A program made the translations under genes and the position numbers. Shown piece by piece: positions 20,671 through 27,620 of a DNA stretch of 64,000 nt (positions are counted from its first letter, which is position 1; each line of letters opens with the position of its first letter). The stretch is from the NCBI GenBank assembly GCA_000004695.1, contig CM000154.2:4928001-4992000 (forward strand), given 5' to 3'. This stretch comes from Dictyostelium discoideum (Eukaryota). The notes below the pieces were generated by a model, which worked only from the letters and a program-made list of their open reading frames with translations, did not search any database and was not told the DNA's origin.

Positions 20671-22021
20671 TTAATCTAGTTTTATAATACCTAAAACAAT
20701 TAATTGATAAAATAATTTCATAAAAGTATTTCTAAATTTTTCACCAAACCAACCAACTTCATTGGCATGCATTCTTTCAGTACTACTTCTACTAAAACCA
20801 ACAGCTTTGAAACCTCTTGATAACATTTCATTTTCATAGGATGATAATGATTCTATAATTGGTAAACCATTGATAAATATTTTTGTTAATGCATTACCAA
20901 GCTCCAATGCATCTTTAATTGCAGTATTACCACCCATACCAGCATGAGAAGTCATTGCATGAACACTATCACCGAGTAGGGTTACTCTTGAAGTTTTAAA
21001 ATTTAAAATTGGTGATGCTTGAGTTAGAGGAGTTGCATGTGAGTCTAGTAAATGTTGAGGTCCAAGATAATCATTTAATAACTTTAATACCATTGGATGA
21101 TAATTTTTAGTATCACGCCTAATTAAATTTAATAAATCTTGGCGAGTCGTTGGAATTGGATCATTTGTAACATCCTTTGGTCTCCATTCATAGCTTATCA
21201 ATAGAATCTCTGTATGATGTTGATTCTCCTCAATAACTCGTTCAATATTATCAACATCTTCAATACCTAAACTAATTGCATGTTGAATATTCTTTGTTCT
21301 ACCAAAAATAATAGTATTTCTAAAATTACCCAAAGTTTTCAAAATTGTTGAATTTTCATCACCCTGAAAGATTACATCTAAAATATCATTTGTTACATTT
21401 GGTACCAATGCTTGAATTCTAAATACATTTACATCTGCAAATTTAAAATTTGGTAATTTAAAATCACGTACACATGATCTTACACCATCAGCACCAATTA
21501 AAATTTCACCTTTTTCAATTGTACCATCTTCAAATGTTGCTATCACTTCACCATTTACATCATCCTCTATATATGATTGTAATCTTTTACCAAACTCAAC
21601 ATCAATACCTTCCATTAAAATTGATCTTAATTCTGAACGATTTACAGTTCCACCAGATTTAAATTTTAATAAAATTTCAAGGTTACGATCTGCAACTGCA
21701 AATTCACCATCTTTAAATAATTGTTTAATTTTTTCAAATTTCTCTTCACATAATGATGATTTTAATGATTCAATACCAATCTTATTTAATCCAATTAAAT
21801 AACCTTGAATTCTTGATTTTTCACTTGTATCTCTTTCAAATATTTTAAATTTAATATTTTCTCTTTTTAATATATTTGCTAATACTAATCCACCTAAACC
21901 GCCACCAATAATTAAAACTTTAATTTTTTCAATTCCTCTAAATAATAAAAAAAATTAATATATATTAATATATTTTAAAAATTTTAAAAAAATATGTTTA
22001 ACTAATTTATTACTCTTTCAT
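20671..22021 (-). CDS. FAD-dependent aromatic-ring monooxygenase (salicylate hydroxylase / UbiH-like family) of about 424 aa. Model: complement(join(21937..22021... first exon 22014..22021, second exon 20671..21937)).
   Basis: An 8-nt first exon ATGAAAGA is followed by a GTAATA...TTATTTAG intron (21938-22013). The second exon opens with the Rossmann GxGxxG IIGGGLGGL. The DG motif GADGVRS and the FAD-binding GD motif LLGDSVHAMTSHAGMGGNTAIKDALEL are present. Confidence 0.8.
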
Positions 22022-22351: not shown

Positions 22352-23380
22352 TTATATTAAAATATTAAAATATTTATTTAAAAATTGTTTAGTATTATAG
22401 TTATTTTCTAAATTTACATAATTATATGCAGATGGTGTTGTTGATAATAATGAAGTGAAATCTTTTAATTGAATTTCTCTATCTTTTTTACTATTATTAA
22501 AATATATAATATAAAAACAATCATTTTCAAATAAATAATAACCTTTATCAAATAATTTAAATAAACTTATTGGTGGTATTGATAAAGATGATGATGATGA
22601 TGATGAAGAAGTTGATTGAATTGATGATGATAAATATTTACAATTTAAAATTGAAATTAATTGGTCATTTGATAAAATTAAATTTCTATTAAAATGGCAA
22701 ATCGCTTGAAAAATCGATTGATTATTTTGTTTTTGTTCATAAATAAATGAACCATCAATTAATCTTCTAACTCTATACTCTTTTTGATTGAAATTTACAA
22801 TTGAATTTGAATTTGAATTTGAATTTGTATTATTTATTAATAATTCAATTGGTTGAAAACAAGAATTTACATTTAACCCTACATCAACGAAATAATCATT
22901 TCCATCTTTCCATTGAATAATATTTGAAAAGTGTATAATACCATTTGAATTTAAAACTGTTTTAACTAATTGAACTTTAATACCAATTTCATTTAAAAAT
23001 AACCCAAAAACTATATTTAAATGTGACGAATTACCACCATTACCATCAATTATAATTTTTTTAATTATTTCTTTAATACTTGAAAAACTTTCACCATCAT
23101 TATTATAATTATTATTTATATAATTATCATCATCAATTTGATTTTGATTTTGTTGTTCTTGTTGTTGTTCTTGTTGATTTTGTTGATTATTATAATTATT
23201 ATCAAATTTATTTATTAATGGTATTTGTTGACAAAATAATAATTGGAGTTTTGAAATTTCACTTAATGATCTAATTTTAAAATGTTGAAATTCATTTTCA
23301 TTACAATTTACCATCACTCTTTTTAAAAATTGAATTTTAAAATTAAAACTAAATTTATTTTTTAAAGAACTGTAAAACAT
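22352..23380 (-). CDS. Arylamine N-acetyltransferase (NAT)-fold protein, 342 aa, single exon. Ser occupies the position of the catalytic Cys.
   Basis: GNGGNSSHLNIVFGLFLNEIGIKV aligns with NAT [23 protein letters not shown], so Cys aligns to Ser. IIHFSNIIQWKDGNDYFVDVGLN aligns with [22 protein letters not shown], conserving the His and Asp of the triad. Q/N-rich low-complexity insert near the N-terminus. Confidence 0.5.
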   Translation of the reverse strand: MFYSSLKNKFSFNFKIQFLKRVMVNCNENEFQHFKIRSLSEISKLQLLFCQQIPLINKFDNNYNNQQNQQEQQQEQQNQNQIDDDNYINNNYNNDGESFSSIKEIIKKIIIDGNGGNSSHLNIVFGLFLNEIGIKVQLVKTVLNSNGIIHFSNIIQWKDGNDYFVDVGLNVNSCFQPIELLINNTNSNSNSNSIVNFNQKEYRVRRLIDGSFIYEQKQNNQSIFQAICHFNRNLILSNDQLISILNCKYLSSSIQSTSSSSSSSSLSIPPISLFKLFDKGYYLFENDCFYIIYFNNSKKDREIQLKDFTSLLSTTPSAYNYVNLENNYNTKQFLNKYFNILI

Positions 23381-24078: not shown

Positions 24079-25439
24079 TTAAGATACTGGATAACCATGA
24101 TAATTTTGATTATTTAAATTATTAAGTTGATTTTGGTTATGAATAATATTGTTTTTTAATTGAGTTATTGATTCATCTACCAATTGTTGTTGATGAGATA
24201 ATTGTTGTTGATGCTGTTGTTGCTTTAATAGTTCAGCAGTATTTGAAATTGATAATGGAATGATATGATCAAGTTCTTGACGTTTTGGAATACCATTTGA
24301 AGATGATAATGGGGTGTCGACACCACCATCACCACCACTACTATTATTGTTGTTATGAGTATTTTGTGCTACATTATCAGCTCCAACATCACCATCCATA
24401 GCATTATCATCATTTGAACTTATCATAAAAGTTGATGATGGTATAATTGTATTTGATTCTCTAATAAAATGATGGTGATGTGATGAACCATTAATTAATG
24501 GAGTTGAATGATTTTCTTCATCATCATTTGCGCCACCACCACTACCACTACCACTACCCTTACCTTTTTTATTAAGTAATATTCCTCCATTATTATTATT
24601 ATTATTATTATTAAATTCTTCATTATTGCTTCCACTACCACCATTTGCTTCAATATCATCATTACAATTATTATTTTTATTAGCACCACCACTACCACTA
24701 CCACCAGTAATTTCATTTAAATCAACCTCAACATTTTCAAATGGAACGAATGGAGAACCAACTCTACTTGATAAACCACCATTTTCTCTATAAGATTTCA
24801 AATTGATTCTCATTACTAATCCGAAAATGATAGCTTGACAAATTGGAACTACGACATAAGTTGAAAAGGACATATAATCGAATGGAACATGGAATACTAA
24901 ACTAAGTATGGAAAATACACCACCAAAGAAATCCATTACAACAAAAATCATACTAAGTCCAACCTTTTCTTGATAAACTTCTAAAATTTGTGGAAAGAAT
25001 CCAACTGCCATTAAACCTGTTGCTGCAATGGTCAATATTAATTGTAAAACAAAGGAATTGGTATGCTTTGCATTCAAAATTGAATAGAGTGAAATAATTG
25101 TTGCAATCGTTACTAAAACACATAATCCTATTGTAAATAATAATCTTTTTAAATTATATTTTCTTTTTTTAAAAAAAAATAAAAAAATCAATTGTTAATT
25201 AAAATAAATAAATGAAAAATAGGGGTGGTAAATATACAAACTTACTTTTGATAAAATAAATGTTGCATGACAATTACTAAACTGAAAAGAGAAAAACATG
25301 AAATTTGAACTACAAGTGCTGGTGGTTCTCTATTAAAAACTAAATTTGTACCTAAAATAACACCACATGCATACCAACATCCAAAACATGTTGGTGATAC
25401 ACCCTTGGTTGATTTTCTTTTGTAATTTAAGTGAACTTT

Positions 25440-26951: not shown

Positions 26952-27620
26952 TTATAATTTCTTATAATTTCCAAAATTAATTTCATTTTCTAATTCTTTT
27001 AAATCTTCAGTATAATTTATCCAAACATAGCCTAATAAATCAGAAGGTAAATCATAATTTTGAGATTTACCATTATATGGAACCGATAAATAAATTACAT
27101 TTGATCTACCGAATTTTCCAATTAAATAACCAAATTCGAAAACTACATTTAATCTTGGATATGCAATTTCAACATAATCAGAATTTGAATCTTTTTTAGT
27201 AAAAGCTTTATTATCGGGTGACATTATTACAATACCAAATTTACAATTTGAAATTTCTTTCTCTAATTTTTCAATTATTGTTTGACCATTATTTGGTTTT
27301 TCAAATAATAAAATTGGTTCAAATCCCATTTCAAATAAAAATTTTGAAACTTTTTCTCTTACAATATTATTATGACCATGAACAATGAAAACTTTTATTC
27401 TTTCATTATTCCCATTACTAATACTATTATTATTATAATTATTATTATTATTATTATTAATAACACTACTATTTGTGTTTACTGTTGATACACTATTATT
27501 ATTATTATTATTATTATTTGGTATTATGTCAATTGATTTTATAATATTACTACTATTATTTAATGATATAAAAAAAATTAAAAAATAAAATAAAACTAAT
27601 AGTCTAAAAATATACTTCAT
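26952..27620 (-). CDS. Small secreted or membrane-anchored protein of 222 aa. An N-terminal signal peptide/anchor and an Asn-rich linker precede a bacterial-type TIR-like nucleotide-binding domain of the COG4271/PF10137 kind (Predicted nucleotide-binding protein containing TIR-like domain). Intronless.
   Basis: Signal peptide MKYIFRLLVLFYFLIFFISL. The domain KVFIVHGHNNIVREKVSKFLFEMGFEPILLFEKPNNGQTIIEKLEKEISNCKFGIVIMSPDNKA...RLNVVFEFGYLIGKFGRSNVIYL matches the remembered family consensus KVFIVHGHD..A...V..FLEKLGLEPIIL.EQ.N.GRTIIEKFE......FAVVLLTPDD.....R.NVIFELGYF.GKLGR.RV. Codon usage and the N-linker are host-like. Confidence 0.68.
   Translation of the reverse strand: MKYIFRLLVLFYFLIFFISLNNSSNIIKSIDIIPNNNNNNNNSVSTVNTNSSVINNNNNNNYNNNSISNGNNERIKVFIVHGHNNIVREKVSKFLFEMGFEPILLFEKPNNGQTIIEKLEKEISNCKFGIVIMSPDNKAFTKKDSNSDYVEIAYPRLNVVFEFGYLIGKFGRSNVIYLSVPYNGKSQNYDLPSDLLGYVWINYTEDLKELENEINFGNYKKL

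Follow-up and report, generated by a model that had tools for sequence, protein, structure and literature searches.

Dictyostelium discoideum encodes a full three-domain protein of the arylamine N-acetyltransferase (NAT) fold in which the position of the catalytic cysteine holds a serine. The gene, DDB_G0291073 (XP_635411, UniProt Q54F67), lies on the reverse strand of a 64,000-nucleotide stretch of the genome (assembly GCA_000004695.1, contig CM000154.2, forward-strand positions 4,928,001 to 4,992,000), hereafter the window, whose own numbering we use. Its product is a homologous member of the NAT family (PF00797, Acetyltransf_2) and part of a Dictyostelium-specific expansion of NAT paralogues. 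The label of an arylamine N-acetyltransferase enzyme (EC 2.3.1.5) should not be applied to it, because the family-defining Cys is missing. With a rough probability of 0.45, we slightly favour a reading in which DDB_G0291073 still uses its pocket for acyl transfer, through a putative serine-type triad formed by Ser118, His150 and Asp166.

Three independent alignments place Ser118 in the column of the catalytic Cys. A pairwise phmmer alignment with the amide synthase GdmF, the best single-sequence PDB match of the D. discoideum protein, sets GNGGNSSHLN against GHGGVCYELN; a 14-sequence MAFFT alignment of the family returns the same column; and a MAFFT alignment containing human NAT1, Bacillus cereus NAT3 (PDB code 4dmo) and a B. 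anthracis NAT (3lnb) equates Ser118 with C68 of human NAT1, His150 with His107 (a column invariant in all aligned family members) and Asp166 with Asp122. The protein has six cysteines, none of them near the catalytic column. Among the features of the enzyme class, the catalytic Cys of the (R)GG(Y/W)C motif is therefore absent, with Ser in its place in D. discoideum, D. dimigraforme and D. purpureum, and the catalytic His and the catalytic Asp (in a V-D-V/A-G motif) are both present. Reviews of the NATs describe the Cys as essential. The model places Ser118 first in helix 118–131, His150 within strand 148–156 and Asp166 after strand 162–165, which is the arrangement expected for the NAT triad in solved structures.

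An initial annotation of this DNA, made from its letters, had described NAT blocks in the open reading frame (ORF) at 22352–23380, GGNSSHLN at the nucleophile position, retained His (IIHFSNI) and Asp (YFVDVGLN) segments and a Q/N-rich insert, and had proposed that the NAT fold is kept. All of this stands: the ORF is intact at 342 aa with PF00797 above its cut-off, the motif occupies residues 115–122, the His and Asp segments (residues 148–154 and 163–170) align with H107 and D122, no Cys lies at or beside the catalytic column, the insert is present at residues ~61–95, and the fold is upheld by profile, pairwise and structure-based tests. Serine at this column appears to be rare, since Cys occupies it in all but one (an engineered C70Q) of 21 solved NAT sequences, the published annotation procedure for the family seeks an RGGYC motif (PMC11213898), and our literature search for an arylamine N-acetyltransferase with Ser-His-Asp found no paper on a Ser-type NAT, nor any report of variation at the NAT Cys position, its single match being unrelated in subject.

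Family membership is clearest where the D. discoideum-specific inserts are missing. Searched alone, the D. discoideum protein matches PF00797 at 26.9 bits (gathering cut-off 22.8, E = 4.9e-6), and the match is confined to residues 101–191 because the inserts break up the remainder. The D. purpureum orthologue DICPUDRAFT_81051, without inserts, matches profile positions 4–234 of 240 (66.1 bits, E = 5.4e-18). A profile of 14 dictyostelid relatives finds NAT structures in the PDB with E-values of 6.2e-40 (4dmo, B. cereus NAT3), 1.6e-31 (3lnb, B. anthracis) and 3.5e-20 (human NAT1). When 1.8 billion representative proteins were scanned exhaustively with HMMER, just 12 relatives came out, and all ten of those looked up by name are dictyostelid.

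Predicted structures show the three-domain NAT fold of helical bundle, β-barrel and α/β lid. The AlphaFold model of the D. discoideum protein has core predicted local distance difference test (pLDDT) values of 80–90 with disordered inserts, and every one of the 40 PDB structures that it matches at E ≤ 0.001 belongs to the NAT family, although the inserts lower the template modelling (TM) score. The AlphaFold2 model of the D. purpureum orthologue (pLDDT 80.8) has 4dmo as its best PDB match over all three domains (TM 0.80, root mean square deviation 3.7 Å), and again 40 of 40 matches with E ≤ 0.001 belong to the family. At the position of VPFENL, the D. discoideum protein reads IPLINKFDN and the D. 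purpureum protein VPLENVN, with an ambiguous alignment of the aromatic position. We considered a second clade-specific change here, PFENL Phe to Leu, and dropped it on account of this ambiguity, an alternative F-D-N lying four residues downstream in D. discoideum. As a separate observation, the profile of the dictyostelid NAT-like group finds Bacillus NATs at E = 6e-40 and human NAT1 at 3.5e-20; this much greater closeness to the Bacillus proteins hints that the amoebal NAT expansion is of bacterial origin.

The serine is shared across species. Codon 118 is TCG in D. discoideum and TCA in D. purpureum and D. dimigraforme alike; a second strain of D. discoideum has GGNSSHLN unchanged in its protein (P0002). 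The initial annotation had suggested comparing other dictyostelids to see if Ser is fixed there, and both D. dimigraforme and D. purpureum give a positive answer. In a neighbour-joining tree (219 columns, 200 bootstraps; a distance method with few taxa), the Ser orthologues of these three species form one clade (99% bootstrap), nested within a 100%-bootstrap clade of Cys-bearing Dictyostelium paralogues that includes NAT5 and NAT6. It follows that the Cys was replaced once, by a point change, before D. discoideum and D. purpureum split.

The evidence also refutes the idea that the serine is a sequencing error at the Cys codon or the mark of a drifting pseudogene. The Pfam match of the D. discoideum protein alone is just above threshold and three repeat tracts interrupt its ORF, which could have suggested a dying gene. 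Against this, Ser codons with synonymous variation in three species, together with the same motif in the second strain, show that Ser118 is not a sequencing error; the ORF is intact in each of these species and in both D. discoideum strains; the orthologue without inserts covers PF00797 from one end to the other (5.4e-18); and the ratio of nonsynonymous to synonymous substitution rates (ω) is 0.12 at a synonymous divergence (dS) of 0.38.

Serine also occupies the Cys column in a second dictyostelid genus. Two proteins of Cavenderia fasciculata, P0012 (392 aa) and P0025 (218 aa), read GGLS(Y)(H/Q)LN, keep the His and have Glu at the Asp column. Their gene models are odd, P0012 being the N-terminal NAT half in tandem duplicate and P0025 being short. 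In the neighbour-joining tree, both group with Bacillus NATs (91%), apart from the other dictyostelid NATs, and because they fall in this separate clade the Cavenderia change is apparently independent of the Dictyostelium one. The grouping itself could reflect a separate origin, transfer or a tree artefact.

DDB_G0291073 is constrained to a similar degree as a Cys-bearing relative. Outside the repeats, ω for DDB_G0291073 between D. discoideum and D. dimigraforme is 0.124 (95% confidence interval (CI) 0.074–0.196; dS ~0.38), with values of 0.03 in the N-terminal domain and 0.12 in the triad core. For the same species pair, the Cys-bearing NAT5 gives 0.096 (95% CI 0.054–0.154). DDB_G0291073 is thus under purifying selection and, because the two values are equal within error, is no more relaxed than this canonical paralogue. 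Comparison of DDB_G0291073 with D. purpureum gives a ratio of 0.32, which is only indicative as dS is saturated. A screen for columns in which one residue class is common to at least 75% of Cys-bearing members while the Ser clade uniformly departs from it identified three, of which only the Cys column is invariant family-wide, the other two being weakly conserved. The Gly-Gly before the nucleophile, Asn122, His150, Asp166, Gly168 and Pro177 are all intact in the Ser clade. Within the active-site shell, the D. discoideum and D. purpureum orthologues share an identity of 0.51, compared with 0.42 and 0.32 for two Cys-bearing orthologue pairs.

We slightly favour a serine enzyme because the change is confined to the nucleophile in a pocket as constrained as in the Cys paralogues, because a second lineage (Cavenderia) again combines Ser with His and an acid, and because thioester-to-serine acyl transfer is well precedented in other folds. 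Polyketide synthase and non-ribosomal peptide synthetase (PKS/NRPS) thioesterases use Ser-His-Asp, and some other families that use thioesters include natural Cys-to-Ser switches in which acyl transfer still works, as in KASIII-like DpsC with Ser-His-Asp, a natural Ser variant in a family otherwise using Cys. In these acyltransferases, Ser attacks a thioester to give an O-acyl-enzyme, from which the acyl group passes to an amine, hydroxyl or water. Their folds are unrelated to that of NAT, and the likeness to DDB_G0291073 is mechanistic only, and proposed.

By the same scheme, Ser118 would attack the thioester of acyl-coenzyme A (acyl-CoA), or another acyl thioester, to form an O-acyl-enzyme, whose acyl group would then be handed to an amine, hydroxyl or water. 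A serine enzyme of this kind would be spared the inactivation that oxidants and electrophiles cause at the canonical NAT thiol, whose sensitivity to oxidants has been described (PMC4158862); it would probably be slower, with different donor and acceptor preferences. The residues flanking the nucleophile, Asn117 and Ser119, are small and polar, and the acyl pocket may be more open, because the acetyl-specific mycobacterial NAT has Tyr at both positions: Y69 and Y71 close the acetyl pocket of M. marinum NAT, and the long-chain enzyme ColC2 reads N71-C72-L73 (bioRxiv 10.64898/2026.04.15.718676). It is possible, and we advance it tentatively, that a change of nucleophile (O-acyl-serine, Ser-His-Asp) would set DDB_G0291073 and its orthologues apart as the first NAT-fold enzymes of their kind, the switch having arisen twice in Dictyostelia, in Dictyostelium and in Cavenderia.

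Several considerations weigh against a serine enzyme. Active sites tuned as thiolate–imidazolium pairs usually lose orders of magnitude in activity on Cys-to-Ser, and engineered changes of this kind usually cripple thiol enzymes. Among the one-nucleotide neighbours of Cys codons, Ser is the most conservative, so that its recurrence is weak evidence for selection of a nucleophile. Retention of His and Asp, which we considered as proof of catalysis, was rejected as such, as a NAT-like paralogue with Phe at the Cys column (described below) keeps both under purifying selection. The closest precedent in papain-like or transglutaminase-like folds also points away from catalysis. Plasmodium serine-type SERA proteins resemble the Ser clade in being a conserved monophyletic subfamily in which the Cys of a Cys-His-Asx fold family is naturally Ser (PMC2878606), and they pose the same enzyme-or-pseudoenzyme question. 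SERA5, a secreted and abundant protein with a papain-family protease domain, is experimentally non-enzymatic (PMC4671257, PMC5500368).

These points lend themselves to a conserved pseudoenzyme, which we regard as a serious contender, if short of an even chance. Here, the NAT fold and pocket would be kept and no acyl-enzyme formed, the protein instead binding or sequestering acyl-CoA, an arylamine-like metabolite or a partner protein, or modulating active NAT paralogues. The defining nucleophile is missing, and replaced throughout a conserved orthologue group, as expected of a pseudoenzyme, and purifying selection indicates that the gene does something. On the other hand, secondary decay or relaxation of the remaining catalytic apparatus, a supportive though not obligatory trait of pseudoenzymes, is not found in the Ser clade: since D. 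discoideum and D. purpureum diverged, no conserved active-site residue other than the nucleophile has decayed, shell identity is no lower than in Cys-bearing orthologue pairs, and ω is within error of the NAT5 value. A binding role that depends on the pocket would account for these last observations too.

The Phe-bearing paralogue is a contrast case for both readings. This short NAT-like protein of 211 to 231 aa (P0007 in D. discoideum, P0018 in D. dimigraforme) is encoded by the gene directly downstream of NAT5. Phe stands in its catalytic-Cys column, its GG, PFEN and VG motifs are gone, as is domain III, and it gives no Pfam match; yet it keeps His and Asp, its ORF is intact in two species and its ω is 0.21 (CI 0.13–0.35). 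Judged by these features, it appears to be a maintained non-catalytic NAT-fold fragment, not catalytic through this position, so the family already holds a member of the kind that a pseudoenzyme reading proposes; it also adjoins the Ser clade in the neighbour-joining tree, without bootstrap support. At the same time, this clear non-catalytic relative looks very different from the Ser clade. The evidence points in two directions: the Ser clade gives no impression of decay, and yet a non-catalytic NAT-fold protein is clearly maintainable in these genomes. The initial annotation's pair of alternatives, a Ser-dependent acyltransferase or a dead pseudoenzyme, is still the right framing; sequence does not choose between them, and the two readings are close to each other.

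Thiol catalysis from a relocated nucleophile is far less probable than either. In this scheme, the thiol acting with the His-Asp pair would be that of Cys174 (NSCFQP) or Cys50 (LLFCQQIP), and Ser118 would be a bystander. Both cysteines are kept in all three Ser-clade species, and of the family members aligned, only the Ser clade and the D. discoideum Phe paralogue have Cys in the column of Cys174. However, the D. dimigraforme Phe paralogue has Ser in that column (FNSFSP), Cys50 is also found in some Cys-bearing paralogues, and the Ser-type proteins of Cavenderia have no Cys at either position. The human NAT1 equivalents are Met131 (for Cys174) and Ile32 (for Cys50), which we take not to be among the residues listed as lining the active site.

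DDB_G0291073 can be set beside characterized members of the fold. It shares with NATs (PF00797; closest structures 4DMO, (BACCR)NAT3, and 3LNB) the three domains, the GG-x-[nucleophile]-x-x-L-N helix cap, the triad His and Asp, the V-D-V-G loop, a P-x-E-L block and a C-terminal K-Y-F-N-I. It differs in its Ser at the nucleophile position, in a divergent PFENL-type motif (IPL..FDN; VPLEN in D. purpureum) and, in D. discoideum, in three low-complexity inserts. Glu in place of the triad Asp in B. cereus NAT3 was itself presented as unique, the 4DMO entry title describing a 'unique Cys-His-Glu' triad. D. discoideum NAT5 (DDB_G0276993) and NAT6 (DDB_G0277549) fall in the same Dictyostelium clade (100% bootstrap) with 30–43% identity to DDB_G0291073 over the 219 aligned tree columns, and NAT5 is under similar constraint (ω 0.10 versus 0.12). 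Unlike DDB_G0291073, both keep the catalytic Cys (NAT5 with Glu for Asp) and carry formal NAT symbols, assigned by the NAT nomenclature group, in database names; NAT1 and NAT4 also have formal symbols (PMC11213898). The NAT-fold amide synthases and N-acyltransferases RifF, GdmF and ColC2 have the same fold and use acyl donors besides acetyl-CoA, and ColC2, like DDB_G0291073, has Asn directly before the nucleophile. They differ in that all three use Cys and belong to bacterial biosynthetic clusters; the C72A variant of ColC2 is dead (bioRxiv 10.64898/2026.04.15.718676).

The gene model itself requires correction. The CDS in the window is an uninterrupted single-exon ORF with an ATG start and 342 codons plus stop, and an identical 342-aa product is recorded for another D. 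discoideum assembly (KAM9948484.1). The AX4 annotation is a 320-aa 'hypothetical protein' that begins at Met23 (codon 23312..23314) and omits 22 N-terminal codons. These codons are coding and the AX4 start is too late, because they are conserved in D. dimigraforme, where only synonymous differences from D. discoideum are seen (ATT/ATC, AGA/AGG, GTG/GTA), and because in the MAFFT family alignment they align with the YNIKELFLKRL block that forms the first helix of the paralogues. The model agrees, with pLDDT 80 at residues 11–20 and a helix at 14–22, and newer strain annotations use the upstream ATG. Databases name the protein only 'hypothetical' or 'uncharacterized', and a literature search for DDB_G0291073 found no paper mentioning the gene.

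Three low-complexity inserts coincide with DNA microsatellites, vary across strains and species and are missing from D. purpureum (Table 1). The Q/N-rich region has pLDDT below 50 at residues 59–99 and an ω of ~2 on a poorly alignable stretch. The N/S repeat is shorter in D. dimigraforme. The Ser tract has pLDDT below 50 at residues 234–269, and its length varies between D. discoideum strains. A further lineage-specific insertion lies at residues ~298–321. The inserts are ordinary Dictyostelium repeat expansions in loops, outside the conserved design, with no part in the proposed mechanism.

Table 1. Features of DDB_G0291073 in window coordinates, with the Phe-bearing paralogues given in coordinates of their own loci (CDS, coding sequence).
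Feature	Position	Strand	Basis or detail
Complete CDS, 342 aa + stop	22352..23380	(-)	PF00797 match, purifying selection, KAM9948484.1
First 22 codons (MFYSSLKNKFSFNFKIQFLKRV), first helix of NAT domain I, missing from AX4 model	23315..23380	(-)	Conservation, alignment, predicted structure
Q/N-rich insert, residues ~61-95, between PFENL-type loop and helix leading to nucleophile	23096..23200	(-)	(TTG)12 and related repeats at 23144-23188
GGNSSHLN motif, residues 115-122, counterpart of (R)GG(W/Y/L)C(L/Y)(Q/E)(V/L)N	23015..23038	(-)	Alignments and profile
Ser118 codon TCG, catalytic-Cys column (human NAT1 Cys68)	23027..23029	(-)	Alignment, predicted structure
His150 codon, triad His (human NAT1 His107)	22931..22933	(-)	Alignment, predicted structure
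Asp166 codon, triad Asp (human NAT1 Asp122)	22883..22885	(-)	Alignment, predicted structure
Cys174 codon in N-S-C-F-Q-P, 8 residues past Asp166 (column of human NAT1 Met131)	22859..22861	(-)	Alignment
N/S repeat NNTNSNSNSNS, residues 183-193	22802..22834	(-)	(TTGAAT)5 at 22801-22831
Ser-rich tract, residues 250-266, interdomain / domain III region	22583..22633	(-)	(GAT)14 at 22587-22631
Phe paralogue P0007	L003:4143-4838		D. discoideum
Phe paralogue P0018	L004:4191-~4830		D. dimigraforme

The order TIR-domain gene, PQ-loop gene, DDB_G0291073, flavin adenine dinucleotide (FAD)-dependent monooxygenase is common to D. discoideum and D. dimigraforme, and the same order is not present within 6 kb in D. 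purpureum. We therefore draw no functional inference from the neighbours. No conserved cluster surrounds DDB_G0291073, the monooxygenase neighbour being kept only in D. dimigraforme, and a biosynthetic or xenobiotic gene pair with this enzyme was dropped as a candidate, the adjacency being absent within 6 kb in D. purpureum. The monooxygenase, an aromatic-ring enzyme of the FAD_binding_3 family at 20671..21615 (-), lies directly downstream on the same strand; its upstream exon at ~21800-21935 reads GGGLGG, and the adjacent D. dimigraforme protein is 85% identical. Upstream of DDB_G0291073, at 24079..25191 (-), is a membrane protein with PQ-loop repeats and long low-complexity tails of N, G, S and Q, syntenic in D. 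dimigraforme. Further away, a 222-aa ORF at 26952..27620 (-) has a strong match to a bacterial-type CAP12/Pycsar-effector TIR domain (PF10137, E = 4.6e-37), with an orthologue in the corresponding syntenic position of D. dimigraforme (L002:1979-2548); the presence of such an antiphage-type domain in an amoeba may merit separate attention.

A Ser-type variant of the NAT family is not described in the literature that we searched. We consider its importance moderate rather than broad, because the family is well understood. Annotation is affected directly: pipelines that require RGGYC may miss Ser-type members, and this requirement may explain why DDB_G0291073 is 'hypothetical' while its Cys paralogues carry NAT names. 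Definition, teaching and annotation of the NAT family all rest on the Cys-His-Asp triad, and a conserved, selected Ser form is a natural test of serine-type acyl transfer on this fold, in a genetically tractable organism. If serine chemistry does not work here, DDB_G0291073 would be an example of a small-molecule enzyme family yielding stable non-catalytic members. If it does, the protein would be an oxidation-resistant NAT, one that could escape inactivation by the oxidants and electrophiles that limit thiol NATs in a phagocyte producing reactive oxygen species.

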